From an uncultured Actinomycetes bacterium (GTDB taxonomy: Bacteria; Actinomycetota; UBA4738; HRBIN12): a stretch of DNA of 64,000 bases. Below the pieces are notes generated by a model. That model searched no databases. It saw only the letters and a list, made by a program, of their open reading frames with translations, and had not been told where the DNA came from. The translations under genes and the position numbers were made by a program. The number at the start of each line of letters is the position of its first letter. The stretch's first letter is position 1. Location of the stretch: NCBI GenBank assembly GCA_963826185.1, contig CAWGVY010000001.1:261732-325731 (forward strand). The letters are read 5' to 3'. Shown here in pieces: positions 26,929 through 44,269 of this stretch.

Positions 26929-27038
26929 ACTGGGGGAGTGTGTACCAGGTACCCCTATGCGTGCACACGTGCCGTTGCCGATACCGCAACCCCTGACTTG
27001 CGCCGTCGCCGTCGGAGGCCGACACTCGACCGGTTCCT

Positions 27039-28079
27039 ATGGGGAGGGTGCCCTTGACTGATCCGTCGAACGTCACGGTTTCTTGCCGCAACGTGTGGAA
27101 GGTCTACGGACCGAAGGCTGAACGGATCGTCGGGTCAGAGGACGCCAAACTCCCGCGGGCCGAGCTCCTGGAGAAGACTGGTTGCGTCGCCGCGGTCCGC
27201 GACGTCTCGTTCGATGTCGCTCCCGGCGAGGTCTTCGTGGTCATGGGCCTGTCGGGCAGCGGGAAATCGACGCTGGTCCGCATGTTGAACCGGATCCACG
27301 ACCCCACCGCGGGGGAGATCCTGATCGACGGCGACGATGTGCTCGCCATGAACGACGAGCAGCTCCGCCAACTTCGCCGCCGCAAGATCAGCATGGTGTT
27401 CCAGCACTTCGGACTGCTGCCCCATCGCCGCATCGGCGACAACGTGGCGTTCGGCCTGGAGATCCAAGGAGAGAGCAAGGAAGCCCGTGCCACCAAGTCT
27501 CGGGACGTCCTGGAGACCGTGGGTCTGGGCGGATGGGCGGACCACTTCCCGGACGAACTGTCCGGCGGCATGCAGCAGCGCGTGGGACTAGCTCGCGCGC
27601 TGGCGACCGATCCGGAGATCATGCTGTTCGATGAGCCGTTCAGCGCCCTCGACCCGTTGATCCGTCGTGACATGCAGAACGAGGTGGTGCGCCTCCAGAA
27701 AGAGGTGAAGAAGACGATGATCTTCATCACCCACGATCTCGCAGAAGCGCTGAAGCTCGGCGATCGCATCGCGATCATGAAGGACGGGCATTTCGTGCAG
27801 GTGGGGACGCCGGAGGAGGTCGTGGCACACCCTGCCGACGACTACGTGGCCGACTTCACGAAGGAGGTCCCCGGGCCCACGTCCTCACGGCCCGCGCGAT
27901 CATGCGCCCGCCGAACGGGGGCGACGGACGGTCCTGTCGTCGACGTCGCCACCGTGGTGCAGGACCTCATCCCGATGGTGGCTCACGCCGATCCCACGAT
28001 CCGCGTCACGGAAGGGGACGCCGTGGTGGGCCTCGTCGACCGCGATGCCGTGATGTCCGCGTTGGTGGAGGAACACTAA
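27039..28079 (+). CDS. proV: glycine betaine/proline ABC transporter ATP-binding protein
   Basis: 'GLSGSGKST', 'LSGGMQQRVGLARAL', 'MLFDEPFSALD' and a C-terminal CBS-like tail. Start uncertain. Contains a locally compensated frame excursion (see findings). Confidence 0.88.
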   Translation: MGRVPLTDPSNVTVSCRNVWKVYGPKAERIVGSEDAKLPRAELLEKTGCVAAVRDVSFDVAPGEVFVVMGLSGSGKSTLVRMLNRIHDPTAGEILIDGDDVLAMNDEQLRQLRRRKISMVFQHFGLLPHRRIGDNVAFGLEIQGESKEARATKSRDVLETVGLGGWADHFPDELSGGMQQRVGLARALATDPEIMLFDEPFSALDPLIRRDMQNEVVRLQKEVKKTMIFITHDLAEALKLGDRIAIMKDGHFVQVGTPEEVVAHPADDYVADFTKEVPGPTSSRPARSCARRTGATDGPVVDVATVVQDLIPMVAHADPTIRVTEGDAVVGLVDRDAVMSALVEEH

Positions 28080-28290: not shown

Positions 28291-29150
28291 GTGGACGTCA
28301 CCCGTTGGTTCGATGCCTTCCGCGACTGGGCGATCCTGAACCGCACCACCAGCCCTTTGTTCGTCTACTTCCTTACGCCGATCGGGGACTTCGCGACCCA
28401 GGTGGTGACCAACACGATCCTGCTGCTCGAACGCATGACGTGGCTCGGGCTGGTGGTGACCGCCGCCGCGATCTCCGGTCTGGTGGCGGGGTGGAAGATG
28501 GCGGTCCTGGCCGGGGCAGGGGTTCTGAGCTTCGGTCTGCTCGGGGTATGGGACGCCGCCATCGAGACCATGGCGCTGATGCTCGTGGCCGTGGTCCTCG
28601 CCCTCCTGATCGGGATCCCGTTGGGCATCTGGGCCGGTCGTCGTCCTCGGGTGGAGCGCGTGCTGCGCCCGATCCTGGACGCGATGCAGACGATCCCCGC
28701 CTACTCCTACCTCTTGCCGTTCGTCCTTCTGTTCGGGATCGGGGACGCGCCGGCGCTGATGGCCACGCTGGCCTTCGCCCTCCCGCCGGCGATCCGGCTG
28801 ACGGCGCTGGGGATCCGTTCGGTGCCCGGTTCATCACTCGAGGTCGCGGACGCGTTCGGTTCCACCGACCGCCAGAAGTTGCGCCTGGTGCAGGTCCCCC
28901 TCGCCAAGCCGTCGATCATGCTTGGTGTGAACCAGACGATCATGATGGCGCTGGGGATCGTCGTGATCGCCGCGTTCGTTGGCGCTGGCGGTCTGGGCCA
29001 GACGGTGCTGGACGGGCTGCAGCGCCTGAGCGTCGGCTCGGCGCTGAACGGGGGCGTCGCCATCGTCATCATGGCGGTTGTGCTCGACCGGGTCACCACG
29101 GCCTGGAGCCTGCGTGAACGTCGCCGGGTCCGTCCACCACACTCGGAGAA
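28291..29150 (+). CDS. proW: glycine betaine ABC permease, first transmembrane domain (ProW-like); N-terminus and 3' boundary unresolved
   Basis: Intact frame-1 segment: '...LDAMQTIPAYSYLLPFVLLFGIGDAPALMATLAFALPPAIRLTALGIRSVP...QVPLAKPSIMLGVNQTIMMALG'. Likely N-terminal pieces lie upstream in other frames (ATG 28082 in frame 2; GTG 28209 'VVAVAAVVVIVVV' in frame 0). No stop codon before the second domain. Confidence 0.7.
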
Positions 29151-30176
29151 CTACGAGCTGAGCCGTCGGCAGCTGACGATCATCGCCGCCGCCGCCATCG
29201 TTGCCGCGGTTCTGATCGGCCGGCAGGTCCTGCGGCAGCAGGGGTTCCCGGAGGGACTAGTTCTCGCTCGCCGGACCCACGGACACCTTCGTGGATTGGC
29301 TGCAGGCGACGTTCGGGAACTCACGAGCGCGATGAGCGACTTCATCCTTGATATATGCTGGATCCGATCGAGGATCTGTTCACGGGTGTGCCCTGGTGGA
29401 TGATGGCGGCGCCTTTGCGCTGATCGGATACAGGGTGTCCGGGATCCGGCTGGCGATCGGCGAGTTCTGCTGCATCGCTGGGCTGGGCGTGCTGGGCATG
29501 TGGGATCTGTCGATGGGCACGCTCAGTCAGGTGCTCGTGGCGGTCGTCATCACGATCGCGTGCGCGATCCCCTCGGGATCCTGTCGGCCCGTAGCGACCG
29601 CTTCGAACGATGGTCCAAGCCGGTGCTGGACGCGATGCAGACGATGCCGGCGTTCGTGTACTTGGTTCCGGTGTTGTTTCTGGTCGAGCCCGGCCGCGTG
29701 CCTGCGATCATCGCTTCCTTCGTCTACGCTTGCCCCCATGGCGATCAGGCTCACGAACCTGGGGATCCGCCAGGTGCCCAAGGAGATCGTCGAGGCCAGC
29801 GAATCCTTCGGGCCCTACCACGGCCAGACTGCTCCGCAAGGTGCAGGTCCCGCTGGCGAAGCCGTCGATCCTGCTCGGCGTGAACCAGACGATCATGATG
29901 GTCCTCTCGGTCGTGATCATCGCCGGGCTGATCGGGGCAGCGGGCCTCGGGCAGGAGGTAGTGTTCGCGCTCGGGAAGCAGCAGATCGGCCGCGGGGTGG
30001 TCGCAGGGGTCTGCATCATGCTCCTCGCCGTCTCTATTGACCGTATAACTCAAGCGATGGGTTCTGGCTCGGCGAACGAGGGGCCCGGGCGGTATCGGGT
30101 TGCCCGCCCGGACACGGATGCGTGTCGTGCATGTTCATCTCGGCAAGGCCGACCGGAGGGAAAGGGGATCGGATGA
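29151..30176 (+). pseudogene. glycine betaine ABC permease, second transmembrane domain (ProZ-like), broken by about 7 frame changes
   Basis: Conserved pieces alternate between frames: 'FSLAGPTDTFVDWLQATFGNS' (f2), 'AMSDFILD' (f1), 'LDPIEDLFTGVPWWMMAA' (f0), 'AFALIGYRVSGIRLAIGEF...' (f2), 'LGILSARSDRFERWSKPVLDAMQTMPAFVYLVP...' (f1), 'PPMAIRLTNLGIRQVPKEIVEASESFG' (f2), 'RKVQVPLAKPSILLGVNQTIMMVL...' (f0). The frame-0 stop overlaps the proX ATG (ATGA at 30173). Confidence 0.75.
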
Positions 30177-31177
30177 GGAAGCGCGGATGGGTACGGCTCG
30201 CGGCCCTGTCGGCCGTGGCGGTGCTCGCGATGGCGGCGTGCAGCGACGTCCAGGAGAGCGGTGAGCGGAGCGTCGGCGGGTCCACGGCGAACGTCGCTAA
30301 GTGCGGGAGCGATCGATCACGATCGCGGTCAACCCATGGGTGGGCGCGGAGGCGAACGCCACCGTCGCCAAGGTCGTGATGGAAGAGCAGATGGGCTGCA
30401 CGGTGAAGCTGCAGGAGATCAACGAGTCGGGCCAGTTCCCAGCCATGGCCGACGGCAGCGTCGACGCCACCCTGGAAGTCTGGCCGTCCGGTCACCTGAA
30501 GGACCGCAAGGACTACATCGAGAAGGACGCGGGCGTGGTCGACGGTGGCGAGTTGGGGATCATCGGCAATATCGGCTGGTTCGTGCCGTCGTACGTGATC
30601 GATCAGACCCCCCAGTTCGCCACGTGGGAGGGGTTCAAGAACAACGCCGACGAGTTCGCCACGGCAGAAACCGGCGACAAGGGCCGGTTCCTGGGCGCAG
30701 ACACGACCTACTCGATCTTCGACGAGGCCATCATCAAGAGCCTCGGATTGGATCTTCAGGTCGTGTACTCCGGGTCGGAGGCTGCCTCGCTGGCGGCCTT
30801 GGACAAGGCCTACAACAACCAGGACCCCATCCTGATGTACTGGTGGACCCCGCAGTGGGCCAGACGCAAAGTACGACCTGGTCGAGGTGAAGTTGCCCGC
30901 AGGCGACAACTGTGCCTCGATCGCCGCGGCGGACCCGGATGTGGCCGAGGGCTACAACTGCGACTACGCCGAGGATGTCCTGTACAAGGCGTTCAGCTCG
31001 GAGCTCGAGGGCAAGGACGCGGCGGCGTTCGCGTTCCTGTCCAACTTCCAGTGGACCGAGGAGGACCAGAACGGCGTGGCCCTCGCGATCCAGGACGGCA
31101 CGGATCCTGAACAGGCCGCCCAGGACTGGATCGACGCCAACAAGGACACCGTTCAGGGGTGGATACCGACCGCGTAG
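30173..31177 (+). CDS. proX: glycine betaine ABC substrate-binding lipoprotein, with two frame breaks
   Basis: ATG 30173 after GGAGGGAAAGGGG. 'MRKRGWVRLAALSAVAVLAMAACSD' (lipobox). Then 'SITIAVNPWVGAEANATVAK...MYWWTPQWA' (frame 1) and 'KYDLVEVKLPAGDNCASIAAADPD...DWIDANKDTVQGWIPTA' (frame 2). Breaks at about 30302-30318 and 30850-30866. Confidence 0.8.
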
Positions 31178-31200
31178 CTCCCGTCGTGACAGGAGAGTGA

Positions 31201-31217
31201 GGGCGGCCCGGCCGCCC
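31201..31217 (+). terminator. GC-rich hairpin downstream of proX
   Basis: GGGCGG-CCCGG-CCGCCC. 24 nt after the proX stop. No U-tract. Confidence 0.35.
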
Positions 31218-31356
31218 CTACTGTTCGGGCCGCGCCTCCCCGTTGCCGCGTCGGATGTGCGGTGCACGGTTGCGGGCAGCGCAACCTGAGGTTTGCCGGC
31301 GCAACGGTGAGTGAGAACATCACCGAGGCAACGCGGGCGGAGGAGCGAGCGGGCGG

Positions 31357-33822
31357 ATGCGCGAGCGTGCACAGACGGTGATCATCGGCGCCGGGATCGT
31401 CGGCGTGAGCGCCGCCTATCACCTGGCCGAGCTCGGCGAGCGCGATGTCCTGGTCCTCGACCAGGGTCCGCTATTCGAGACCGGGGGCTCCACCTCGCAC
31501 GCCCCCGGCCTGGTGTTCCAGACGAACGGCTCGCGCACGATGTGCCGGATCGCGCAGGACACGGTGACGCTGTACGCGGGCCTCGAGCTGGACGGCGAAC
31601 CCGCATGGTTCGGGGTCGGCGGCATCGAGATCGCTACGACGCCCGAGCGCATGCGTGAGCTCCGTCGCAAGATCGGATTCGCCCGTTCGTACGGGATCGA
31701 GGGCGCGGAGCTGATCACCCCCGCCGAAGTGGTCGAGCATGTCCCACTGCTGGATCCCTCCACCGTGCTGGGTGGCTACTTCGTCCCGTCCGACGGGATC
31801 GCGAAGGCCGTGCGGATCGTGACGGCCCTCGCACGTGCGGCCTCGCTGCACAGCGTGGACTTCGAGGGCGGGGTCGCCGTCACGGGGTTCGACATCCGGG
31901 ATGGTCGCGTGCACGGCGTGATCACCGACCGTGGAGCGGTCGAGTGCGATCGGGTGCTGATCTGTGCCGGGATCTGGGGCCCGACGGTGGGGGCGATGGC
32001 CGGCGTGCCCATCCCCTTGATCGCGGTCCAGCACCAGCTGGTCTGGACCGACCCCATCCCGGAGTTGACCGACGAGACGCACGAGGTCGTTCACCCGATC
32101 CTGCGCCACCAGGACATGGCGATGTACTTCCGCCACCGCGAAGATCACTACGGGGTCGGGAGCTACAGGCACGAGCCGATCGCGACGCCGCAAGCCGGGA
32201 TCCGGGCGTCCGGAGGGCCGATGCAGCCCTCGCTGATGCCCTTCACCCCCGCCGACTTCGCCGTGGCCGAGGCGGAGGCCGGACGGATCCTCCCCCCGCT
32301 CAGCGGTCGGATGCGTCCGGCCGACCCCGCGCGATCGCTCAACGGGATGTTCTCGTTCACCCCCGACGCCGGATCGATCGTGGGTGAGAGCGCGTCGGTG
32401 CGCGGCCTGTGGGTGTGTGAGGCGGTCTGGGTCACGCACGGCGGCGGGATGGGCCGGCAGGTGGCCGAGTGGATGGCCACCGGCGAGCCCTCCTACGATC
32501 TGGCAGAGGCGGACGCGAACCGCTTCTATCCCTTCCAGACGACGCCGCCCTACGTCCTGGAGCGTGGCAAGCAGCAGTACCGGGAGGTCTACGACATCCT
32601 CCACCCGCTCCAACGGATGGAGCGCCCGCGCAAGGTGAAGCTCACCCCGTTCTTCGCCCGGCATCAGGAGCTGGGAGCCGAGTTCTTCAGCGGTGCGGGA
32701 TGGGAGCGTCCGCAGTGGTTCGAGGCCAACGCCGGCTCGGTGCCGGCTGACGCGGGATGGGTCGAGCGCGATCGATGGGCGGCCCGGTTCTGGTCGCCTG
32801 CGGTCGGCGTGGAGCATCTCGCCACCCGCGAGCGCGTCGCGCTGTTCGACATCACACCGTTCGCGAAGTTCGACGTCGCGGGCCGGGATGCGCTGAGCTA
32901 CCTCGAGCGCATCTGTGCGAATCGGATCGATCGACCGGCCGGGTCCGTCGTCTACACCGCGATGCTCACGCCCCGCGGTGGGATCCGCTGCGATCTCACG
33001 GTCACCCGCAAAGACGAGGACCTGTTCCGAGTGGTGACCGGAGGCGGCTCCGGTCAACATGATCTGGCGTGGATGCGTTCGCAGATCCTAGGCGGCGAAC
33101 GCGTGACGATCACGGAGCGCACCGGCTCGCTCTTCTGCCTCGGGCTGTGGGGGCCCCGGGCGCGCGACGTGCTGGCCTCGGTCACCGACGCGGACGTCTC
33201 GAACGAGGCCTTCCCGTACCTGACGGCGAAGTACCTGAACATGGGCGAGGTAGGGCCGGTGTGGGCGCAGAGGATCTCCTACGCCGGCGAGCTCGGCTGG
33301 GAGCTGTACGGCCAGTTCGCGATGGGGGATCGGGCCTGGTCGATGCTCTGGGAGGGCGGGCGCGAGCACGGGATCGTGGCCGCCGGCGGGGGCGCCTTCG
33401 ACTCCCTCCGCTTGGAGAAGGGCTACCGGCTGTGGGGCCAGGACATCCATACCGAGCACGATCCGATCGAGGCCGGGCTGGGATTCGCGGTGCGGTGGGA
33501 CAAGGACTTCCAGGGCCGGGAAGCGCTCGAGCGGATACGGGATGGGAGCCTGACCCACAAACTCGCGTGCATGACCCTGGACGACCCGGTCGCCGTGGTG
33601 ATGGGCAAGGAGCCGATCTGGGCGAAGGGCTCCGTCGTGAGTTACGTCACTTCCGCCGCCTACGGCTATTCGGTTGGCCGTGGCATCACCTACGGGTACC
33701 TGCCGGTCGAGATCGCCACCGAAGGCACGCCGGTGGAGATCGAGTATTTCGGCGATCGGGTTGCGGCGACCGTGGCGGCTGACCCCTTGGTCGACCCGAA
33801 GGGCGAACGGATGAAGGTGTGA
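31357..33822 (+). CDS. dimethylglycine oxidase-like flavoprotein (FAD oxidoreductase domain fused to GcvT-type folate-binding domain)
   Basis: 821 aa. 'TVIIGAGIVGVSAAYHLA' and a C-terminal aminomethyltransferase-like region ('ISYAGELGWELY', 'LRLEKGYRLWGQD'). Architecture resembles Arthrobacter DMGO (from memory). Confidence 0.85.
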   Translation: MRERAQTVIIGAGIVGVSAAYHLAELGERDVLVLDQGPLFETGGSTSHAPGLVFQTNGSRTMCRIAQDTVTLYAGLELDGEPAWFGVGGIEIATTPERMRELRRKIGFARSYGIEGAELITPAEVVEHVPLLDPSTVLGGYFVPSDGIAKAVRIVTALARAASLHSVDFEGGVAVTGFDIRDGRVHGVITDRGAVECDRVLICAGIWGPTVGAMAGVPIPLIAVQHQLVWTDPIPELTDETHEVVHPILRHQDMAMYFRHREDHYGVGSYRHEPIATPQAGIRASGGPMQPSLMPFTPADFAVAEAEAGRILPPLSGRMRPADPARSLNGMFSFTPDAGSIVGESASVRGLWVCEAVWVTHGGGMGRQVAEWMATGEPSYDLAEADANRFYPFQTTPPYVLERGKQQYREVYDILHPLQRMERPRKVKLTPFFARHQELGAEFFSGAGWERPQWFEANAGSVPADAGWVERDRWAARFWSPAVGVEHLATRERVALFDITPFAKFDVAGRDALSYLERICANRIDRPAGSVVYTAMLTPRGGIRCDLTVTRKDEDLFRVVTGGGSGQHDLAWMRSQILGGERVTITERTGSLFCLGLWGPRARDVLASVTDADVSNEAFPYLTAKYLNMGEVGPVWAQRISYAGELGWELYGQFAMGDRAWSMLWEGGREHGIVAAGGGAFDSLRLEKGYRLWGQDIHTEHDPIEAGLGFAVRWDKDFQGREALERIRDGSLTHKLACMTLDDPVAVVMGKEPIWAKGSVVSYVTSAAYGYSVGRGITYGYLPVEIATEGTPVEIEYFGDRVAATVAADPLVDPKGERMKV

Positions 33823-33832
33823 GGAGACGAGG

Positions 33833-34531
33833 ATGAGCGACGAGGAACTTGACCTGTCGACCCTGCCCGACCCCGAACTGGTCGCCCAGATGCACGATGA
33901 TCTGTACGACGGCCTGGCCGAGGAGATCGCGGAGGGCACGAACCTGCTGCTTGCCCGCGGGTGGTCGCCCGATCGGGTGTTGAACGAAGCCCTGGTCGAG
34001 GGGATGCGGATCGTCGGGATCGACTTCCGCGACGGGATCCTGTTCGTGCCTGAGGTCCTGCTCGCGGCCAACGCGATGAAGGCCGGGATGTCCATCCTCC
34101 GCCCGCTGCTGGCCGAGACCGGTGCCGAGCGCATGGGCAAGGTGGTGATCGGCACCGTCAAGGGCGACATCCACGACATCGGCAAGAACCTGGTGGGGAT
34201 GATGCTGGAGGGCGCCGGCTTCGACGTGATCGACCTCGGTATCAACAACCCCGTGGAGAGCTACCTGGCGGCGCTGGAGGAACACGAGCCCGACATCCTG
34301 GGGATGAGCGCGTTGCTCACCACCACGATGCCCTACATGAAGGTCGTGGTCGACGAACTGGTGGCCAAGGGGCTCCGCGACCGCTACATCGTGCTGGTGG
34401 GCGGCGCCCCGCTCAACGAGGAGTTCGGCAAGGCGGTGGGCGCGGACGCCTACTGCCGCGATGCCGCCGTGGCGGCCGAAACGGCCCAGGCGCTGGTGAT
34501 GGCCAAGCGTGCCGCGGCCGCCAGCGCTTGA
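33833..34531 (+). CDS. cobalamin-binding corrinoid protein (MtgC/MttC-like)
   Basis: 232 aa. B12-binding 'DxHxxG' as 'GDIHDIGKN', 'SALLTTTM', 'VLVGGAPL'. N-terminal helical cap domain. Confidence 0.9.
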   Translation: MSDEELDLSTLPDPELVAQMHDDLYDGLAEEIAEGTNLLLARGWSPDRVLNEALVEGMRIVGIDFRDGILFVPEVLLAANAMKAGMSILRPLLAETGAERMGKVVIGTVKGDIHDIGKNLVGMMLEGAGFDVIDLGINNPVESYLAALEEHEPDILGMSALLTTTMPYMKVVVDELVAKGLRDRYIVLVGGAPLNEEFGKAVGADAYCRDAAVAAETAQALVMAKRAAAASA

Positions 34532-34542
34532 GGGCCGATGTG

Positions 34543-34860
34543 ATGGCGGAGCTCACGGTGATCTGGTGGCGTGACATCCCCGCCCAGGTGACGGCGAAGG
34601 AAGGTCGCGTCCGTGCGAAGGCCCCGCTGTCCAACCGATTCCAAGAGGCGATCGACATGGCGGCTACCCGGGTGGGCTTGATCGGCACTGACGAGTACCT
34701 TGCGCAGTGGCGGCGGGAGACGCGTCACTGTTCGGACGACATCGAGGCCGAGGTCGAGCGGGAGGCCCACCGGCTCGAGCAGTCCTACGGGGATTCCTGG
34801 CTCGAGACCCTGGTGCGCCAGGGTGGCAGAGCCGACGCTTCCGGAGGTGCCGAGTCATGA
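34543..34860 (+). CDS. small conserved protein of unknown function ('virulence factor'-domain-like, operon partner of corrinoid methyltransferases)
   Basis: 'MAELTVIWWRDIPAQVTAKEGRVRAKAPLSNRFQEAIDMAATRVGLIGTDEYLAQWRRE...'. The start could be TTG 34528 or GTG 34540. Its TGA overlaps the next gene's ATG. Domain name recalled from memory, not verified. Confidence 0.6.
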   Translation: MAELTVIWWRDIPAQVTAKEGRVRAKAPLSNRFQEAIDMAATRVGLIGTDEYLAQWRRETRHCSDDIEAEVEREAHRLEQSYGDSWLETLVRQGGRADASGGAES

Positions 34861-35810
34861 CCGATACGGTCGTGTCCTCGGCCACCCGCGAGGTGGTGAT
34901 CGGCTCGGGACGTCCGTTCGTGATCATCGGTGAGCGGATCAACCCCACGGGCCGCAAGAAGCTGGCCGAAGAGATGAAGGCGGGGGACTTCTCCACGGTC
35001 GTGTCGGACACGCAGGCTCAGGTGGGGGCCGGCGCCCACATGCTGGACGTGAACGCGGGCATCCCGCTCGCGGACGAGCCCGCGATCCTCGCCGAGACCG
35101 TCCAGCTGGTGCAGTCGCTCACCGATGTGCCCCTGTCGATCGATTCGTCGATCGTGGCGGCCCTCGAAGCGGGTCTCGCCGTGTACCAAGGCAAACCGTT
35201 GGTCAACTCGGTCACGGGCGAGGACGAGCGTCTCGAGAGCGTCCTCCCGCTGGTCGCGAAGCACGGAGCGGCCGTGGTCGCGATCACGAACGATGAGACG
35301 GGGATCAGCGAAGATCCTGACGTGCGCTTCGCGGTCGCGGAGAGGATCGTGCACGCCGCCGCGGACCATGGGATCCCGGCCCACGACATCGTGGTCGATC
35401 CGCTGGTGATGCCGATCGGCGCCATGGGATCGGCGGGCCGACAGGTATTCACGCTGGTGCGCCGGCTGCACGATGAGCTCGGCGTCAACACCACATGTGG
35501 TGCGTCCAACGTCTCTTTCGGGCTCCCGAACCGCAACGGGATCAACGGGGCGTTCCTGGCGATGGCGATCGCCAGTGGGATGACCAGCGCCATCACCAGC
35601 CCGATGCACGAGCAGGTTCGGCAAGCCGTGATGGCAGCGGATGTCCTGATGGGGACCGATCCCGATTGCCGGGCGTGGATCTCACGCTACCGGGAGGGCT
35701 CCGACGGCTCCGCGCCCGACGGTGCGCGCCGGCGCGGGGGGCGAGAGGGCCGGCGGCGCGCCACCGGTGGCGAAACTGGCCCCACCTTGGAGATCGTGCC
35801 CGACCCGTGA
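34857..35810 (+). CDS. methyltetrahydrofolate:corrinoid methyltransferase (pterin-binding, MtgA/AcsE-like)
   Basis: ATGA overlap at 34857. 'VIIGERINPTGRKKLAEEM', 'MLDVNAG', 'LSIDSS', 'PLVNSVTGE', 'CGASNVSFGLPNR'. Confidence 0.88.
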   Translation: MTDTVVSSATREVVIGSGRPFVIIGERINPTGRKKLAEEMKAGDFSTVVSDTQAQVGAGAHMLDVNAGIPLADEPAILAETVQLVQSLTDVPLSIDSSIVAALEAGLAVYQGKPLVNSVTGEDERLESVLPLVAKHGAAVVAITNDETGISEDPDVRFAVAERIVHAAADHGIPAHDIVVDPLVMPIGAMGSAGRQVFTLVRRLHDELGVNTTCGASNVSFGLPNRNGINGAFLAMAIASGMTSAITSPMHEQVRQAVMAADVLMGTDPDCRAWISRYREGSDGSAPDGARRRGGREGRRRATGGETGPTLEIVPDP

Positions 35811-37840
35811 GCGGTCCAGCGGACGCGCTCGTGGTCTTCACGCCCTCGGGCAAGCGGGGTCGGTTCGACCGTGGCGCGAACCTCCTGGACGCCGCCCGAT
35901 CCCTGGGCGTCGACCTGGACTCGGTGTGCGGGGGACGCGGGATCTGCGGGCGATGTCAGATCGTGGTGAGCGAGGGCGCGTTCGCGAAGCACGGGATCAC
36001 CTCGGCGGCGGATCACCTCACCGCGTTCTCGGAGCCAGAGGGACGGTACCGGCGGCTGCGCGGTCTCGCCGAGGACCGACGGTTGGGATGCCACGCCCGC
36101 GTCCTGGGCGACCTGGTCGTAGACGTGCCGCCGGAGAGCCAGCTCCACCGCCAGGTGGTGCGCAAGGAGGCCGACGCGCACACGATCGAGGTGGATCCGG
36201 TGGTCCGCCTCCACTACGTGGAGGTCCGCGAGCCTGACATGGCCGATCCCTCAGGCGATCTGGAGCGGCTGATGGAGGCGCTGGAGCGTGACTGGGCCTT
36301 GACCGGCCTCGCCTGCGATCCGCATGTGTTGAGCGTCCTCCAGTCCACGCTCCGCGCGGGTGCCTGGGCGGTGACGGTGGCGGTCCACGACGCCTCGGTG
36401 ATCACCGCGATCTGGCCCGAGCTCCACGAGACGATGGTGGGTATCGCCTTCGACGTCGGCTCGACCACCGTGGCCGGGCATCTCTGCGACCTCGCTTCGG
36501 GCGTGGTGTTGGCGAGCGCCGGGACGATGAACCCGCAGATCCGATTCGGTGAGGATCTGATGAGCCGGGTGTCCTACGTGATGATGAACCCGGATGCGAA
36601 GGACGACCTGACCCGCGTCGTGCGCGAGTGCCTGGACGAGCTGATCGTCGGGCTCTGTCAAGAAGCGGGGGTGACGCCGGACGACGTCCTGGAGCTCACC
36701 GTGGTCGGCAACCCGATCATGCACCACCTGTTCCTCGGTCTCGATCCCACCGAGCTGGGCGGCGCGCCGTTCGCGCTGACTACCGACCGAGCCGTGCGCC
36801 GCCCAGCTGCGACGCTGGGGCTGCATGCGAATCCTGGAGCCCGCGTGTACGTCCTGCCGTGCATCGCGGGGCACGTCGGCGCGGATACCGCGGGAGTGAT
36901 CCTGTCCGAGGCGCCCTACCAGCAGTCGACGATGAACCTGATCGTCGACGTGGGCACGAACGCCGAGATCGTGCTCGGCAACCATGAGCGCTTGCTGGCA
37001 GCCTCCAGTCCCACGGGTCCAGCATTCGAGGGTGCCCAGATCTCGTGCGGACAACGGGCAGCGCCGGGTGCGATCGAGCGGGTGCGGATCGATCCCGAGA
37101 CGCTGGAGCCTCGCTTCCGCGTCATCGGCGATGAGCGATGGTCGGACGAGCCAGGGTTCGACGGGGCAGCGACCGGGGTGTGCGGGTCGGGCATCATCGA
37201 GGTCGTGGCCGAGCTGTTCCTGGCGGGGATCCTCACGACCGACGGGGTGATCGACGGCGCGCTCGCCTCGCGCTCGCCGCGGATCGTCCCCGACGCTCGC
37301 ACGTTCTCCTACGTTCTGCACGACGGCGAACCACGGCTGGTGATCACCCAGAACGACATCCGGCAGATCCAACTGGCGAAGGCCGCTCTATACGCCGGCT
37401 GCCGGCTGTTGATGGATCACGCCGGCCTGGAAGGAGTGGACCGGATCCGACTGGCCGGCGCGTTCGGCGCGCACATCGATCCGGTCCATGCCCTGGTCCT
37501 GGGCCTGGTCCCCGATTGCGATCCCGAGAAGGTCACGAGCGCCGGGAACGCCGCCGGCACGGGAGCGCGCATCGCCCTGTTGAACCGCGCCGCTCGGCCC
37601 GAGATCGAGGGAGTCGTCCGGCGGGTCCAGAAGATCGAGACGGCCGTGGAGCCACGGTTCCAGGAGCACTTCGTGGATGCGATGGGTATCCCGCACTCGA
37701 CCGATCCGAATCCACGGTTACGGAGCGCCGTGACCCTGCCCGATCCCCGGACGGCCGGCGGCGACGATCGTGGCCGCCGACGCCGAGGTCGGGAACCCAG
37801 GACCGCCGACGTCCAACCCGCCGAGAGGAGCACGCCATGA
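35807..37840 (+). CDS. corrinoid reductive activase (RACo-type: N-terminal [2Fe-2S] ferredoxin plus ASKHA/DUF4445 ATPase)
   Basis: GTGA overlap at 35807. 'CGGRGICGRCQIVV...GCHARV' ferredoxin. ASKHA motifs 'IAFDVGSTTVAG', 'IVDVGTNAEIVLG', 'GNAAGTGA'. 677 aa. Confidence 0.85.
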   Translation: MSGPADALVVFTPSGKRGRFDRGANLLDAARSLGVDLDSVCGGRGICGRCQIVVSEGAFAKHGITSAADHLTAFSEPEGRYRRLRGLAEDRRLGCHARVLGDLVVDVPPESQLHRQVVRKEADAHTIEVDPVVRLHYVEVREPDMADPSGDLERLMEALERDWALTGLACDPHVLSVLQSTLRAGAWAVTVAVHDASVITAIWPELHETMVGIAFDVGSTTVAGHLCDLASGVVLASAGTMNPQIRFGEDLMSRVSYVMMNPDAKDDLTRVVRECLDELIVGLCQEAGVTPDDVLELTVVGNPIMHHLFLGLDPTELGGAPFALTTDRAVRRPAATLGLHANPGARVYVLPCIAGHVGADTAGVILSEAPYQQSTMNLIVDVGTNAEIVLGNHERLLAASSPTGPAFEGAQISCGQRAAPGAIERVRIDPETLEPRFRVIGDERWSDEPGFDGAATGVCGSGIIEVVAELFLAGILTTDGVIDGALASRSPRIVPDARTFSYVLHDGEPRLVITQNDIRQIQLAKAALYAGCRLLMDHAGLEGVDRIRLAGAFGAHIDPVHALVLGLVPDCDPEKVTSAGNAAGTGARIALLNRAARPEIEGVVRRVQKIETAVEPRFQEHFVDAMGIPHSTDPNPRLRSAVTLPDPRTAGGDDRGRRRRGREPRTADVQPAERSTP

Positions 37841-39375
37841 GCGACGAACCTCGCCCCGGCCGTCGGGGCCGAGCTGCCCGCCAGGCGGCCCGCGCCCACG
37901 CCGTGGCCGAGAAGGTCCCCTTCATCACGCGAACGCTTCGCCCCTTCGAGGTCCTGAGCGACGAGGGGTTGGAGCTGATCGAGCACAACGCGGACACGAT
38001 CCTTGAGCAGGTGGGGATCGACTTCCGCGACGCGCCCGACGCGGTGAAGCTCTTCAAAGAGGCGGGCGCGGACGTAGAGGGAGAACGCGTGCACTTCCCC
38101 AAGGGGATGTGTCGTCGGATCATCCAGGCGAGCGCCCCCAGCAGCTTCACCCAGCATGCGCGCAACCCCGCCAACACCGTCGAGATCGGCGGGATGAACA
38201 CGGTCTTCGCTCCGGCGTACGGCTCTCCCTTCGTGCGCGATCTGGACGGAGGCCGTCGTTACGGCACGATTGAGGACTTCCGGAACTTCGTGAAGCTCAC
38301 CTATCAGACCCCGTTCCTCCATCACGCGGGAGGGACGGTCTGCGAGCCCGTGGACCTGCCCGTGAACAAGCGCCACTACGACATGGTCTATGCCCACATG
38401 CGGTACTCGGACAAGCCCTTCATGGGCTCGGTGACCCATCCCCAGCGTGCCGAGGACACCGTGGAGATGGCGCGGATCCTCTTCGGCAAGGATGAGCTGG
38501 AGTCCAAGTGCGTGATCCTCAGCCTGATCAACGCGAACTCTCCGCTCGTGTGGGATGCCACGATGTTGGGCGCGGCCAAGGCGTACGCACAGGCGAACCA
38601 AGGGGTGATCATGACGCCGTTCATCCTGGCCGGCGCGATGAGTCCAGCGACGGTGGCCGGAGCCGCGACGCAAACGTTGGCCGAATCGATGGCGGGGATG
38701 ACCTACGTGCAACTGGTGCGCCCGGGCGCGCCGGTCGTGTTCGGATCGTTCGCGTCCTCGATGTCGATGCAGTCGGGGGCCCCCACGTTCGGCACGCCGG
38801 AGCCGGCGCTGGTGCTCTACACCCTCGCTGCCTGCGCGCGCCGCTTGGGCGTGCCCTTCCGCAGCGGAGGTTCGCTCTGCGCGTCCAAGATCCCCGACGC
38901 CCAAGCGGCATACGAATCGGCCAACACCTTGCAGCCCACGGTCTTGGGCGGGGCGAACTTCGTCCTGCACGCGGCCGGATGGCTCGAGGGCGGGCTGACC
39001 ATGGGTTATGAGAAGTTCGTGATGGACCTCGACCAGTGCGGCATGATGCACGCGTTCGCCAAAGGGGTGGACCTGACGCCGAACGGACAGGCCTTGGACG
39101 CGATCATCGAGAACGGACCGGGACAGCACTTCCTGGGGACCGCGCACACCCTGGCGAACTTCGAGACCGCGTTCTTCCGCTCAACGATCGCCGACAACAA
39201 CAGCTTCGAACAGTGGGAGTCGGAGGGATCCAAGGACGCCGTCACCCGCGCGAACGCTCTTTGGAAGGCGATGCTGGCCGAGTACCAGGAGCCGCCGATC
39301 GACGAGGCCGTGGACCTCGAGCTCCGGGAGTGGATCGAACGCCAGAAGGCGTCGTTCCCGGACTCCAACGTGTGA
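37837..39375 (+). CDS. MttB-superfamily methyltransferase, non-pyrrolysine type (quaternary amine:corrinoid methyltransferase, MtgB-like)
   Basis: ATGA overlap at 37837 with GAGAGGAG upstream. 512 aa uninterrupted (no in-frame TAG). N-terminal '...FITRTLRPFEVLSDEGLELIEHNADTILEQVGIDF' and the body are typical of the MttB family as I recall it. Confidence 0.85.
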   Translation: MSDEPRPGRRGRAARQAARAHAVAEKVPFITRTLRPFEVLSDEGLELIEHNADTILEQVGIDFRDAPDAVKLFKEAGADVEGERVHFPKGMCRRIIQASAPSSFTQHARNPANTVEIGGMNTVFAPAYGSPFVRDLDGGRRYGTIEDFRNFVKLTYQTPFLHHAGGTVCEPVDLPVNKRHYDMVYAHMRYSDKPFMGSVTHPQRAEDTVEMARILFGKDELESKCVILSLINANSPLVWDATMLGAAKAYAQANQGVIMTPFILAGAMSPATVAGAATQTLAESMAGMTYVQLVRPGAPVVFGSFASSMSMQSGAPTFGTPEPALVLYTLAACARRLGVPFRSGGSLCASKIPDAQAAYESANTLQPTVLGGANFVLHAAGWLEGGLTMGYEKFVMDLDQCGMMHAFAKGVDLTPNGQALDAIIENGPGQHFLGTAHTLANFETAFFRSTIADNNSFEQWESEGSKDAVTRANALWKAMLAEYQEPPIDEAVDLELREWIERQKASFPDSNV

Positions 39376-39382
39376 TCGGGGC

Positions 39383-40270
39383 GTGTCCGTGGCCGTGAGG
39401 AAACGTCGTCCAACAGGGGGCCTCGACCAGGAGCAGCGGGCCACCCTGCGGAGGTTGGTCGCGGCGCCCAAGTTCGAGCTGATCCCGTTGAAGGATGCGA
39501 TCGAGCGATCCGAGCCGCTGCCCCACGGGGCCACGGTGACGGTGACGGCATCGCCCAGCCATGGCATCGAGGCCACCCTCGACCTCGCCGAGGCGATGGT
39601 CGAACGCGGTCATGCGGCCATCCCGCATCTATCGGCACACATGATCCGCGATCGGGCACACCTTCGGGACATCCTCCAACGGTGCGGCTCGTCGGGCCTG
39701 TCCCGAACGTTCGTGGTGGGCGGCGATGCGCGCGACAAGGGGGAGTTCCACGACGGCCTGATGTTGCTACGCGCGATGGAGGAGGAGGGCCATCCGTTCG
39801 AGGAGATCGGTGTCCCGGGGTATCCAGAGGGTCACGTCGACATCGCGGACGGCGTCTTGGTGGCGGTGCTCAAGGAGAAGCAGCGCCTGGCGGCGTACGT
39901 GACCACGCAGATGTGCTTCGATCCCGATGCGATCGCCGGCTGGATCGCACGGATGCGATCAGAGGGCGTGACCCTGCCCGTGCACCTGGGGACCCCGGGG
40001 GTGGCGGAGCTCGCGAAGCTCATGACGATCAGTGCGCGGATCGGTATCGCGGACTCAGCCCGATACCTGAAGAAGAACCGGAGGATGGTGGGCCATCTGC
40101 TCTCACCCGGACGTTTCGGACCCGACGCCCTCCTCGAGGGCCTGGCGCCGACGTTCTGCGACCCCATCGCGCGGCTCGAGGCCCTGCACGTGTTCACCTT
40201 CAACCAGGTGGAGGCCACGATCGCGTGGCAGGAGCGCATGCTCGCCGCGCTCGACGAGGAGACCACGTAG
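39383..40270 (+). CDS. metF: methylenetetrahydrofolate reductase family protein
   Basis: 295 aa, 7 nt after the MttB-family gene. MTHFR-like TIM-barrel pattern ('FELIPLK', 'TFVVGGD', 'PGYPEGH'). Assignment from memory of the family. Confidence 0.75.
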   Translation: MSVAVRKRRPTGGLDQEQRATLRRLVAAPKFELIPLKDAIERSEPLPHGATVTVTASPSHGIEATLDLAEAMVERGHAAIPHLSAHMIRDRAHLRDILQRCGSSGLSRTFVVGGDARDKGEFHDGLMLLRAMEEEGHPFEEIGVPGYPEGHVDIADGVLVAVLKEKQRLAAYVTTQMCFDPDAIAGWIARMRSEGVTLPVHLGTPGVAELAKLMTISARIGIADSARYLKKNRRMVGHLLSPGRFGPDALLEGLAPTFCDPIARLEALHVFTFNQVEATIAWQERMLAALDEETT

Positions 40271-40283
40271 CCGAGGAGGGATC

Positions 40284-40748
40284 ATGGCGGAGGACCGATC
40301 GGTGGTGGCCGTGTACGAGACGGATGAGCAGGCGCAGATGGGGTACGAGTCGGTGCGAGAGACGGGGATCGCCGCCGAGCAGATCACCGTGGTCGGGGCG
40401 GGGGAGAGCGGTGCCACGGATGCCTTCGCAGGAGCCGAGAGCCCGACCGCGAAAGGAGCCGGCCGCGGTGCCCTCCTCGGCGGCATCGTTGGCGCTGTGG
40501 TCACCCTGGCGATCCCCGGCGTCGGCGTGGTCTTGGCCAGTGGTCTGTTGGCGGCCGGCGCCGTGAGCGGGGCCGGTCTCGGGATGCTCGCAGAGGTGGG
40601 CGTCCCCACTGCGAACGTGAAGGACTACGAGGAAGATCTGGCCGACGGTCGCTACCTGGTGGTGGTGCACGGCTCGGCCGAGGACGTCGAGCGGGCTCAC
40701 GACGCGCTCTACATGACGGACACCGAGGAGCTCGATCGATACGTCTGA
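40284..40748 (+). CDS. YflT-like general stress protein with glycine-zipper membrane segment
   Basis: 154 aa. 'SVVAVYETDEQAQMGYESVRETGI', the Gly-rich hydrophobic core 'GALLGGIVGAVVTLAIPGVGVVLASGLLAAGAVSGAGLG', and 'YEEDLADGRYLVVVHG'. Confidence 0.6.
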   Translation: MAEDRSVVAVYETDEQAQMGYESVRETGIAAEQITVVGAGESGATDAFAGAESPTAKGAGRGALLGGIVGAVVTLAIPGVGVVLASGLLAAGAVSGAGLGMLAEVGVPTANVKDYEEDLADGRYLVVVHGSAEDVERAHDALYMTDTEELDRYV

Positions 40749-40754
40749 GCGGTG

Positions 40755-41312
40755 TCAGAACCTCGCCGCTTCCAAGAGCCAGTCCAGGAGGTAGTCCGCG
40801 AACGAGGTCCGGACCAGGATGCTGGTACGACCGTCGACCTCCCCGAGGATCACCTGGGCCTTGGCCAGCATCGTCTGAGCGCACATCCCATCGCGCCACG
40901 CGCGCGGATGCAGATCGAGTGAGCATCCCTTCGACAGCAGCGTGAAACGACCGGGACCGCGCAGCTCGAGCGCCACGCGGTTGGCGCTGACATCTACGAC
41001 CGAGTGATGCACGCCGGCCAGGGCCGCCTCGAGCTCCGCGACGATCTGCGGGCCGGAGCCGCCCCCGCCGAGGATGAGCCATTCGTCCGGACCGATCCAC
41101 AGGGCCCGTCGTTGCCGGTCGCCCAGGGTCGTGTTGGGCGTGCGCGGGAGTGGGTGGGGCGCCAGGTCGAGCAGCGACGGATCGAGGCGCAGGTTCACCT
41201 GGCCGAGGAGGGCATGGGCCGCAGTTACGGTTCCCCCGGAGCGCTCGGCGATGCGTTCCAGATCATCGAGCCGGTCGCGGTACGGCGTGCGCCCAAGATC
41301 CTCAGCCGTCAC
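40755..41312 (-). CDS. soxG: sarcosine oxidase subunit gamma
   Basis: GTG 41312 preceded by GGAGGGG. Overlaps the soxA end by 11 nt. '...LWIGPDEWLILGG...VVDVSANRVALELRG...'. An ATG at 41333 is the alternative start. Confidence 0.8.
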   Translation of the reverse strand: MTAEDLGRTPYRDRLDDLERIAERSGGTVTAAHALLGQVNLRLDPSLLDLAPHPLPRTPNTTLGDRQRRALWIGPDEWLILGGGGSGPQIVAELEAALAGVHHSVVDVSANRVALELRGPGRFTLLSKGCSLDLHPRAWRDGMCAQTMLAKAQVILGEVDGRTSILVRTSFADYLLDWLLEAARF

Positions 41313-43986
41313 GACGCATCCCCTCCGGGTCATAGAAGATCGGCGACGTGACCTCGGCTGCGATCGTCCCATCCGGCATCGGAGCGTGCACGGTGGTCCC
41401 GTAGAGCTCTCGGCCCCGTTCGATCATCGCGAGCGCGAACGTTCGCCGCAGGACGGCGCTCCGGTAGCTGGAGGTCACGTGGCCCGCCATGGGCATGGGG
41501 ATCTCGCCGGTGTCCTCCAGGACGATCTGCGCTCCTTCCGGGATCCGGGTGTCTGGATCGACGGGCAGCAGGCCGACCAACCGTTTGCGGTCGGGTCGGA
41601 TCGAGTCCGGTCGAACCAGCGATCGTTTGCCCACGAAGTCCCCCTTGCCAGGGTTCACGATCCACCCCATGCCCAGGTCCTCGGGCGTTACGGTGCCGTC
41701 GGTATCCTGGCCCACGATCACGAACCCCTTCTCGGCCCGGAGCACGTGCATCGTCTCGGTCCCGTAGGGCGTGATGCCGAAGGGCTCACCCGCGGCCATC
41801 ACCGCCTGCCAGACGTCGAGACCGTGCGAGCCGGAGACGTTGATCTCGTAGGCGAGCTCTCCGCTGAAACTCACGCGCGCGACGCGCGCCTGGTGGCCCG
41901 CCACGGTGCCGTCGCGCCATGTCATCCACGGGAAGGCCTCGACCGAGAGATCGATATCGGTGCCCACGGCCGCCACGACCTCTCGGGCACGGGGGCCGTT
42001 GACCGCGATCGTGCTCCATTGCTCCGTGACGCTGGTGCAGTACACCTGCAGCTCCGGCCACTCCGTCTGGAGCCATTCCTCGAACCGGTCCAAGACCTTG
42101 GCGGCGCCCCCCGTCGTCGTGGTGACCAGGTAGCGGTCCTCAGCGAGGCGCATCGCCACGCCGTCATCGAAGACCATCCCGTCGAGCCCGAGCATCAGCC
42201 CGTACCGGATCGCGCCCACCTTCACGGTCGACATCGCGTTGGTGTACATGCGGTCCAAGAACGCGGGGGCGTCTGCGCCAACCACCTCGATCTTGCCCAA
42301 CGTCGATGCGTCCATCGCACCAACCCCGGTCCGCACGGCGAGGCATTCGCGTTGCACGGCGGGGTCCAGATCCTCGGATGGGCTCGCCGGGAAATACCAG
42401 GGCCGCTTCCACTGCCCGACGTTCTCGAACACCGCTCCGCGGGCGAGATGCCAGGGGTGGATCGGGGTGGTCCGCGCCGGATCGAGGAGCGCTTCCCGAT
42501 CGAGGCCCGCGAGCGTGGCGTAGGGGATCGGCGAGTACGGCGGACGAGCGCTGGTAGGACCCTGCGCTCCGCCGCCGTCACCGCGAAGGTGGTTCACGAT
42601 CTCCGCCGTGAGGACGCCGGAGGTGCGGCCCTGGTCGATCGCGGTGCCGATGTATGTGGCTCGCTTGATGTGCTCGACGGACCGGAGGTCGTGGCCCAGG
42701 GCGGCGAGTACATCCGCGACCGTCGCGTCCCGCTGCAGATCCACGAAGTGTCGGCTCAGGTCCTCCGCCGGGGTGAACCAGAACGGGGAGCCAGCAGGCA
42801 CGTTCCCGGCTGCCATGCCCGTTACCTCCAGCCACGTCGGGCCGGATCCATCTGGGACGAAACACGATCGAGCTTCGTCGTAGCGCAGTCCGCCGCCGAT
42901 CGAGCGCCACAGCTGCACCGTGGGGTTCCAGCCGCCGGATACGAGGACCAGATCCGCGTCGAAGGACTCCTGCGCGCCGCCGGGGCCGATGCCGTGCACC
43001 GCGACGACCCGCCGGTCGCCATCCGTCCCGGTGACGGCCCAACCGGTCCGCACGTCGATCCCTTTCGCAAGTGCGAGATCGGCAGCCGGTCCACCCTCGC
43101 CGGCATCCAGGATCGCCACGATCTCCACGCCGGCGTCGGCCAGCACCTCCGCCGACCGGTACGCATTGTGGTTCGTGGTGAACACGACCGCCCGCCGTCC
43201 GGGGAGGACCCCGAAACGATCCGCGTACAGGGCCGCCGATGAGGCGAGCATCACGCCGGGACGGTCGTCGTCTGAGAACGCCACCGGGCGCTCGTGTGCG
43301 CCGGTGGCGAGGACCACTCGTCGGGCTCGCACGTGCCACACCCGCTCCACCGGCCTGGACCGCTCGTGCACGACCACGGACCCCATGTCGTAGATCCCCG
43401 ACGCGGTCGCCCTCGGCAGGACCGTCACCTCCGGATCGGCGAGGAGCGCATCGAGGGTGGCGGCGATCCACGTGGGAGCCGGTTCATCCTCTACGGAGTC
43501 GGTGGAGGCTACGGTGCCCCCGACCCAGTGGCGCTCGTCGACGAGCATCACGCGATCGCCCGTTCGCGCGGCGTCACGGGCCGCGCCCAGACCGGCGATC
43601 CCGCCTCCCACCACCAGGGTCTCGACGTGGATGGAGCGGTGTTCGGCCTTCCGTGGCGTTGGGTCGCCGGCGGGGAGGCGCCCGACCCCAGGCCTGCCTT
43701 CCGCGACGAGCCCTTCGACCAACTCGACGGCGGGGGCGGGGACGATGGGGTCGCACCAAGGCTCGCTCACCTCGACGAACGCGCCCGACTCCTCGACGCC
43801 GGCCGACATCACGCCGCGCGGCCGACCCAGGATCGGTGAGTGACAGACCTCGTCGACATCGGCGGCCAGCAACGCGCTGGCGAGCGTATCCCCCGCGAAA
43901 CCCTGGAGATCTGTGCCGCCGAAGGAGAAGGGGATCGTCGTGGATCGATCGATCCCGTGTCCGAGGTGCGCCGATCGCGAGCCCAT
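41302..43986 (-). CDS. soxA: sarcosine oxidase subunit alpha
   Basis: 894 aa. 'GDTLASALLA', 'LVVGGGIAGLGAARDAA' and a C-terminal GcvT-like folate domain ('VSFSGELAYEINV'). Confidence 0.9.
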   Translation of the reverse strand: MGSRSAHLGHGIDRSTTIPFSFGGTDLQGFAGDTLASALLAADVDEVCHSPILGRPRGVMSAGVEESGAFVEVSEPWCDPIVPAPAVELVEGLVAEGRPGVGRLPAGDPTPRKAEHRSIHVETLVVGGGIAGLGAARDAARTGDRVMLVDERHWVGGTVASTDSVEDEPAPTWIAATLDALLADPEVTVLPRATASGIYDMGSVVVHERSRPVERVWHVRARRVVLATGAHERPVAFSDDDRPGVMLASSAALYADRFGVLPGRRAVVFTTNHNAYRSAEVLADAGVEIVAILDAGEGGPAADLALAKGIDVRTGWAVTGTDGDRRVVAVHGIGPGGAQESFDADLVLVSGGWNPTVQLWRSIGGGLRYDEARSCFVPDGSGPTWLEVTGMAAGNVPAGSPFWFTPAEDLSRHFVDLQRDATVADVLAALGHDLRSVEHIKRATYIGTAIDQGRTSGVLTAEIVNHLRGDGGGAQGPTSARPPYSPIPYATLAGLDREALLDPARTTPIHPWHLARGAVFENVGQWKRPWYFPASPSEDLDPAVQRECLAVRTGVGAMDASTLGKIEVVGADAPAFLDRMYTNAMSTVKVGAIRYGLMLGLDGMVFDDGVAMRLAEDRYLVTTTTGGAAKVLDRFEEWLQTEWPELQVYCTSVTEQWSTIAVNGPRAREVVAAVGTDIDLSVEAFPWMTWRDGTVAGHQARVARVSFSGELAYEINVSGSHGLDVWQAVMAAGEPFGITPYGTETMHVLRAEKGFVIVGQDTDGTVTPEDLGMGWIVNPGKGDFVGKRSLVRPDSIRPDRKRLVGLLPVDPDTRIPEGAQIVLEDTGEIPMPMAGHVTSSYRSAVLRRTFALAMIERGRELYGTTVHAPMPDGTIAAEVTSPIFYDPEGMRRDG

Positions 43987-44268: not shown

Positions 44269-44269
44269 G

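Follow-up and report, generated by a model that had tools for sequence, protein, structure and literature searches.

An actinobacterial operon predicted to demethylate glycine betaine through a corrinoid methyltransferase system and dimethylglycine oxidase

The stretch of DNA analysed here comprises 64 kb of contig CAWGVY010000001.1 from an uncultured Actinomycetes bacterium and is referred to as the window. It contains a compact gene cluster in which the components of an MtgBCD-type corrinoid methyltransferase system, predicted to act on glycine betaine, follow a gene for a dimethylglycine oxidase (DMGO)-like enzyme. Seven open reading frames lie on the plus strand between positions 31357 and 40270, all of them where the first-pass annotation of this DNA had placed them, and searches with Pfam and NCBIfam models agree with every family that it had named for the seven products. 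The first gene encodes a DMGO-like FAD/GcvT fusion of 821 amino acids (31357-33822; DAO, FAO_M, GCV_T, and GCV_T_C domains). It is followed by genes for an MtgC-type corrinoid protein of 232 amino acids (33833-34531; B12-binding_2 and B12-binding domains, with the DxHxxG motif in GDIHDIGKN), a small protein of 105 amino acids (34543-34860; PF13769, 'Virulence_fact', 71.7 bits), and an MtgD-type methyl-tetrahydrofolate (methyl-THF):corrinoid methyltransferase (34857-35810; Pterin_bind, and PRK07535 at 359 bits against a cutoff of 259). The remaining three genes encode a RACo/RamA-type reductive activase with an N-terminal [2Fe-2S] domain (35807-37840; Fer2, RACo_linker, Raco_middle, and RACo_C_ter, with the motif CGGRGICGRCQ), an MtgB-like, non-pyrrolysine methyltransferase of the MttB family (37837-39375; 512 amino acids, PF06253 at 767 bits), and a single-subunit methylenetetrahydrofolate reductase (MTHFR), MetF, of 295 amino acids (39383-40270), which matches PF02219 weakly at 47.5 bits.

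The genes are tightly packed, and the short gaps and codon overlaps reported in the first-pass annotation can all be read in the sequence. The DMGO gene ends with TGA at 33820-33822, followed by a 10-nucleotide (nt) gap containing GGAG and the mtgC start codon ATG at 33833. The stop codon of mtgC occupies 34529-34531, and the next gene starts either with ATG at 34543, leaving a gap of 11 nt, or with GTG at 34540, leaving 8 nt. At the next three junctions, the stop codon shares bases with the following start codon: ATGA at 34857 (PF13769 gene and mtgD), GTGA at 35807 (mtgD and the RACo gene), and ATGA once more at 37837 (RACo gene and mtgB), the last with GAGAGGAG just before it. Only 7 nt separate mtgB from the GTG start codon of metF at 39383. 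A further gene on the same strand (40284-40748) begins 13 nt after metF, with a GGAGG site in the gap, and is a possible eighth member of the operon; it encodes a YflT-like small protein (Pfam YflT, a marginal 28 bits), which is also found in one of the related loci described below (L004). All eight genes are intact and show a strong coding signal in GC content at third codon positions (GC3), as do the downstream soxBDAG genes. From this layout, the cluster is very probably transcribed as one unit that includes the DMGO gene. Scans of positions 30800-41500 for sigma-70 promoters and intrinsic terminators found nothing, a result that is uninformative for high-GC Actinomycetota, and an Rfam scan of the whole window for cobalamin, THF, and glycine riboswitches gave no match at gathering thresholds. 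Low-complexity tails rich in Arg and Gly occur at the C-termini of MtgD and RACo and at the N-terminus of MtgB, encoded at the overlapping junctions (35690-35810 and 37740-37900).

The MttB-family protein was placed by pairwise scores to solved structures together with residue mapping. Its closest solved relative is PDB 4YYC (738 bits, 65% identity), which we matched, by translating the Sinorhizobium meliloti locus, to the MttB-family protein adjoining mtgC in that organism. It is 43% identical to the biochemically proven MtgB of Desulfitobacterium hafniense (2QNE/9YCE) but reaches only 122 bits in comparison with the pyrrolysine enzyme MttB (7XCL). Among NCBIfam models, only TIGR02369 matched, at 262 bits against a cutoff of 525. 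As the first-pass annotation had claimed, the gene contains no in-frame TAG codon, and the pyrrolysine position that it had proposed to inspect, Pyl334 of Methanosarcina barkeri MttB, aligns with Leu347; D. hafniense MtgB also has Leu there. A true trimethylamine methyltransferase MttB was rejected in view of the missing in-frame TAG, Leu347, and the low scores to 7XCL and with TIGR02369. Four residues contact glycine betaine in D. hafniense MtgB: Y97, F356, R312, and H348 (Picking et al. 2026, PMC13080624). Alignment mapping identifies Y128, R342, and H378 as kept counterparts of Y97, R312, and H348, that is, three of the four contacts.

The other cassette proteins likewise resemble those of proteobacterial mtg loci. 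In pairwise comparison, MtgC is 80% identical to the cobalamin-binding protein of the S. meliloti mtg locus and 77% to a Paracoccus protein; its best NCBIfam model is MtgC_2, with a score under the cutoff of that model. MtgD and RACo are 65% and 60% identical to the S. meliloti homologue and ASKHA protein, respectively. The product that the first-pass annotation had listed as a small unknown protein is present and is a PF13769 member, 52% identical to its S. meliloti counterpart. The best solved relative of MetF is S6MTHFR (7XG9) at 115 bits, with other MTHFR-family chains in the PDB scoring at most 41.5 bits. According to Yu et al. (2025, PMC11868366), S6MTHFR catalyses the oxidation of methyl-THF and works alongside demethylases that generate this compound; judging from its similarity to S6MTHFR, MetF of the window probably oxidises CH3-THF as well. 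For the flavoenzyme at the start of the operon, Arthrobacter DMGO (1PJ5) is the best solved relative at 751 bits, compared to 463 bits for dimethylglycine dehydrogenase, and the stretch GGSTSHAPGLVFQTN, which contains His48, is identical between the two proteins. The enzyme that would act on the expected product of MtgB is encoded by the adjoining first gene of the operon, an order that is repeated in relatives.

The system is widely distributed. A scan of species-representative genomes with the MtgB protein yielded at least 598 stretches with a gene for a close relative, and the protein database holds more than 8000 clusters related to MtgB. The best 80 of these at least 598 stretches show 68-85% identity and come from Actinomycetota, Thermoleophilia/Gaiellales, Chloroflexota (Limnocylindrales), and Gamma-, Beta-, and Alphaproteobacteria. 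By tblastn mapping, the cassette order in Actinomycetota and Chloroflexota is mtgC-DUF1638-PF13769-mtgD-RACo-mtgB-metF. In Proteobacteria, it is rearranged, with mtgB divergent from mtgC-DUF1638-...-PF13769-metV-metF-mtgD-RACo in the annotated S. meliloti and Paracoccus records. DUF1638 is present in the other cassette variants recovered, and the same tblastn mapping found it neither anywhere in the 64-kb window nor in the cassettes of the nearest relatives. The form seen in the window, in which the DMGO gene comes first, DUF1638 is missing, soxBDAG is convergent, and genes for an IclR regulator and a pyridoxal phosphate (PLP) enzyme follow, is repeated in the loci L001, L004, L006, L007, L008, L011, and L012, all from metagenome-assembled genomes (MAGs) of uncultured Actinomycetes. 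The arrangement is not a product of chance, since at least seven independent Actinomycetes MAGs have their genes in this order. The cassette itself is conserved across many genomes of Actinomycetota, Chloroflexota, and Proteobacteria, which answers the synteny survey proposed in the first-pass annotation.

The operon is flanked by further genes of choline and betaine metabolism. Downstream and convergent with it, the genes for a heterotetrameric sarcosine oxidase occupy 40755-45950 on the minus strand, in the order soxG, soxA, soxD, a YjbR-like gene, and soxB (SoxG, SO_alpha_A3 and GCV_T, SoxD, YjbR, and DAO domains, respectively); soxB scores 632 bits with TIGR01373 against a cutoff of 529. 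The YjbR-family gene between soxD and soxB (44270-44668, minus strand) is inserted at the same place in L001, L004, L005, L007, and L011. An IclR-family regulator (46043-46846, plus strand; HTH_IclR and IclR_C) comes next, a position kept in relatives at 74-87% identity. Directly after iclR lies a gene for a CysK/cystathionine-beta-synthase-like PLP enzyme (46862-47902, plus strand; 316 bits, under the cysKM cutoff of 344), whose position beside iclR is also kept in relatives (71-80% identity). Upstream of the operon, betA for choline dehydrogenase is located at 25270-26928 on the minus strand (TIGR01810, 845 bits against a cutoff of 732; N- and C-terminal GMC_oxred domains). It is followed on the plus strand by a gene for a ProV-like ATPase of a betaine/choline ABC transporter (27039-28079; TIGR01186, 360 bits against a cutoff of 327), a gene for a fused double permease of the ProW type (28291-30100; BPD_transp_1), and a gene for a lipoprotein substrate-binding protein (30122-31177). 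The permease gene is frame-disrupted from about position 29100: the permease orthologues of L004 and L008, of about 700 amino acids, fall in two frames of the window, and the GC3 frame plot switches likewise. The binding-protein gene is split into a piece with the signal peptide and two more pieces in different frames, its orthologues mapping to frame 1 at 30313-30870 and to frame 2 at 30869-31165. These frame breaks reflect either indel errors in the assembly or pseudogenisation. Of the flanks described in the first-pass annotation, betA, proV, soxBDAG, and the IclR gene were thus confirmed, and the permease and binding-protein genes turned out to be broken across frames. GC content is even throughout the window (0.64-0.71) and gives no compositional hint of horizontal transfer; the possibility of a horizontally acquired island was set aside.

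A palindrome recurs beside these gene groups. The first copy, GTTGCCGATACCGCAAC, is a putative operator at 26974-26990 in the divergent intergenic region of betA and proV. Upstream of the operon, two adjacent palindromes, GTTGCGGGCAGCGCAAC (31269-31285) and TTGCCGGCGCAAC (31293-31305), mark a putative operator and promoter region, and relatives have kept the block that bears them upstream of their DMGO gene. This 179-nt region opens with a GC-rich hairpin (GGGCGGC-CCG-GCCGCCC, 31201-31217, plus strand) after the stop codon of the binding-protein gene; the hairpin has no T-tail and was not called by the terminator scan, and similar hairpins occur in L004 and L008. The exact form GTTGC-N7-GCAAC has two sites in the window (26974-26990 and 31269-31285) against 0.02 expected by chance. 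It occurs exactly in nine actinobacterial loci, and in eight of these the site is found no farther than about 100 nt upstream of the first mapped gene of the cassette; the exception is L003, where it is situated about 2.5 kb upstream of mtgC. One further exact match is found in 1.46 Mb of loci. A copy with one mismatch, GATGCGCGTTCCGCAAC, sits at 45935-45951 in the divergent region between soxB and iclR, and one-mismatch copies are also close to iclR in L001, L003, and L004. We infer that the palindrome is probably the operator of the adjacent IclR regulator and that a single regulon would comprise the corrinoid cassette together with choline oxidation, betaine uptake, and sarcosine oxidation. 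Because such a regulon joins the cassette to these three functions, it supports glycine betaine as the substrate.

The window also contains a second N-methyl catabolic cluster (54903-60388), made up of genes for a divergent AsnC regulator, a Rieske/Ring_hydroxyl_A oxygenase, a beta-lactamase-fold protein, and an FAD/GcvT enzyme of 821 amino acids that is 33% identical to the DMGO of the operon; a BetI-like TetR regulator is encoded nearby (62333-62962). Its Rieske protein (55376-56674) was considered as a GbcA-type oxygenase for an alternative first step and rejected, because its resemblance to GbcA is limited to the N-terminal region (180 bits, with the cutoff at 670). Two genes of the flavin amine-oxidase family (19750-21006, plus strand, and 52062-53732, minus strand) flank the betaine region, with enoyl-CoA hydratase, CoA-ligase-like, and acyl-CoA dehydrogenase genes beside them.

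An aerobic precedent for such a system exists. The marine aerobe Ruegeria pomeroyi demethylates glycine betaine with MtgB, MtgC, MtgD, RamA, DUF1638, and MetF2 (Mausz et al., PNAS 2025, PMC12478193). In this organism, two PF06253 proteins (MtgB1 and MtgB2), RamA, DUF1638, and MetF2 are induced on glycine betaine, choline, and carnitine; MetF2 is proposed to oxidise methyl-H4F, and MtgD is proposed to be bidirectional (PMC12478193). In Alpha-, Gamma-, and Deltaproteobacteria, genes for reactivation, one-carbon (C1) oxidation, and downstream demethylation frequently sit together and may even share operons, and S. meliloti is named as having a co-localised mtgBCDE locus (PMC12478193), which also carries bmt. 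Actinomycetota make their only appearance in that study as 5% of the mtgC reads (PMC12478193). The first-pass annotation had taken MttB systems of this kind to be known from strict anaerobes, a view that the R. pomeroyi route has rendered outdated. It had proposed that the first methyl group leaves through cobalamin and THF and the next two through flavoenzymes, with MetF running oxidatively. This route is supported by the homology, residue, and synteny comparisons above, as far as sequence can indicate, and it is established in kind because Mausz et al. demonstrated it in R. pomeroyi. Its presumed unusualness does not hold, given the 2025 publication in aerobic Proteobacteria and the wide spread of the cassette. 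The pathway has therefore largely been characterised already; for an actinobacterial operon that begins with the DMGO gene, literature searches found no prior description.

Taken together, we consider the locus to be an actinobacterial counterpart of the MtgBCD system by which aerobes demethylate glycine betaine, very probably on one transcript with the DMGO gene, and assign this reading a probability of roughly 0.8. In the proposed pathway, MtgB would take one methyl group off glycine betaine and load it on the Co(I) corrinoid of MtgC, leaving dimethylglycine, and MtgD would hand the methyl group to THF. The single-subunit MetF would then oxidise 5-methyl-THF to 5,10-methylene-THF. The RACo/RamA protein is expected to re-reduce Co(II) arising by oxidation, a need that should be frequent in an aerobe. 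DMGO would convert dimethylglycine to sarcosine, and SoxBDAG sarcosine to glycine, both loading the C1 unit on THF via their GcvT-type domains. BetA and the ABC transporter would supply the substrate, and the shared GTTGC-N7-GCAAC operator, probably bound by the IclR regulator, would coordinate the three promoter regions.

Compared to the R. pomeroyi and S. meliloti systems, the locus shares a non-pyrrolysine MtgB, MtgC, a pterin-binding MtgD, a RamA/RACo activase, and a MetF paralogue, and the proteobacterial MtgBCD loci likewise have genes for the demethylation of dimethylglycine and sarcosine nearby; identity to the S. meliloti locus proteins ranges from 52 to 80%. In contrast to these loci, the host is an uncultured, soil-type Actinomycetes lineage, and the genes run on one strand throughout, with DMGO first, no DUF1638, and no mtgE nearby. 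The proteobacterial loci also encode MetV (PF12225) and a MetF of 363 amino acids, whereas the window has the S6MTHFR-like MetF of 295 amino acids. The latter shares with S6MTHFR (type 4) the short single-domain form and a place beside a methyl-THF-producing demethylase, but its partner is a corrinoid-dependent system like CmuAB and not LigM. With MtgABC of D. hafniense (Ticak et al. 2014; PMC13080624), the window would have in common the chemistry that leads from glycine betaine via the corrinoid protein to THF. D. hafniense, however, is a strict anaerobe that stops at dimethylglycine, whereas the flavoenzyme steps are present here. The MtgD of the window is a Pterin_bind/PRK07535 protein (MetH/AcsE-like) that matches the proteobacterial MtgD. 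Arthrobacter globiformis DMGO (1PJ5) has the same four-domain architecture as the flavoenzyme and an identical His48 motif; the difference is that the gene described here opens a corrinoid methyltransferase operon.

Several observations weigh against this assignment. The fourth glycine betaine contact, F356, corresponds to Gly386 here and to Gly in S. meliloti as well; Trp382, four residues upstream of Gly386, may stand in for F356, and the GWLEGG segment is shared by the S. meliloti protein. The assignment of MtgB in aerobes is itself based on proteomics and not on a mutant or an assay. DUF1638, which is needed together with RamA in Phaeobacter inhibens, is missing from the cassette and from the window as a whole; it could be encoded elsewhere in the genome. 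The motifs described for type 4 MTHFR comprise loop beta2-alpha3 (L48-P49), helix alpha8 (F215, C219), and loop beta8-alpha11 (P268-F269) (PMC11868366), and MetF keeps only two of the seven S6MTHFR residues that we checked (Pro49 and Phe269), the equivalents of L48, R78, F215, C219, and P268 being S, M, I, I, and T. For the DMGO-like protein, sequence does not firmly distinguish an oxidase from an electron-transfer-linked dehydrogenase. Co-transcription is deduced from gene spacing only, and the adjoining transporter genes are frame-disrupted in the assembly (about 29100-31177), next to a 9-kb operon that is intact.

The main uncertainty concerns substrate specificity, owing to the change at F356. 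The MttB-family protein may act on another quaternary amine, such as proline betaine, carnitine, gamma-butyrobetaine, or choline, with the proximity of the DMGO gene being coincidental or part of a broader N-methyl catabolic cluster; we regard this as unlikely. It would account for the loss of one of the four binding residues, which Picking et al. describe as a minimal set with further specificity determinants in existence (PMC13080624). It would also suit the second demethylation cluster at 54903-60388, whose Rieske oxygenase and second FAD/GcvT enzyme imply that the organism handles several methylated amines. However, the products of the alternative substrates are not substrates of DMGO, yet the DMGO gene lies 10 nt ahead of mtgC in a conserved position. 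The Y97/F356 aromatic pair is not conserved in MtcB, MtpB, MthB, and MtyB (Picking et al.), and Tyr128 retains its Y97 member. Moreover, betA and the ProV-type transporter gene stand in front of the operon, the palindrome is common to the betA/proV region and the operon, and genetics on mtgC and mtgD tie the orthologous proteobacterial system to glycine betaine.

Alternatively, MtgC, MtgD, and RACo could mainly form a split cobalamin-dependent methionine synthase as in P. inhibens, with MetF working reductively to supply methyl-THF. The same MtgC and MtgD constitute the core of split MetH in Rhodobacterales (Mausz et al., Price et al.), RamA-like and DUF1638 proteins are both required for this related enzyme (Price et al. 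2018), and the proposed bidirectionality of MtgD would permit such a role. No homologue of the homocysteine-binding MtgE/Bmt was found in the 64-kb window or in the actinobacterial loci, however, and a catabolic role is favoured for this reason. The cassette is also set among the catabolic genes for DMGO, SoxBDAG, and BetA, and MetF is far nearer to the oxidative S6MTHFR than to the other MTHFR-family chains of the PDB. Methionine synthesis as the main function therefore appears improbable, although the module may have a dual role in demethylation and methionine synthesis if MtgE is encoded elsewhere in the genome. That the cluster is a decaying, non-functional remnant of an unused pathway, as the several frame disruptions in the permease and binding-protein uptake genes might suggest, is hardly credible, since the breaks all fall within about 2 kb and could stem from indel errors of the assembly, and the operon and soxBDAG are intact by the GC3 signal, with products 62-91% identical to those of relatives.

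Within the demethylation system favoured here, the PF13769 protein deserves separate consideration. It occurs in nearly all complete cassettes recovered, across three phyla (including L081, 7111-7413), and its gene, which overlaps the start of mtgD in the window, overlaps metV by 8 nt in S. meliloti. An AlphaFold2 model built from 57 homologues is confident (pLDDT, the predicted local distance difference test score, of 89.7). A Foldseek search of this model against the PDB gave no significant match (best E-value 0.35), the sequence matched no solved structure, and a literature search on PF13769 found no paper. We tentatively suggest, as a possibility that we ourselves rate as doubtful, that PF13769 is an unrecognised, near-obligatory part of aerobic corrinoid methyltransferase cassettes and that the lineage has dispensed with DUF1638, which would imply a different solution for the reactivation or protection of the corrinoid under oxygen.

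As a whole, the locus is a new actinobacterial example of a system described in 2025 and very widespread, and it represents no new category or new kind of biology. The DMGO gene in the operon, the missing DUF1638, the single-subunit S6MTHFR-like MetF, the conserved palindrome, and the PF13769 part are local features of this lineage. Three of these points, the PF13769 protein, the loss of DUF1638 from the cassette, and the putative operator formed by the shared palindrome, provide testable leads, and the compact eight-gene operon would be a handy unit for heterologous reconstitution. The finding extends aerobic cobalamin-dependent demethylation of glycine betaine from marine Proteobacteria to soil-type Actinomycetota and Chloroflexota. 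With at least 598 stretches encoding a close MtgB homologue, the availability of vitamin B12 may therefore limit the turnover of osmolytes in soils and in the ocean alike.

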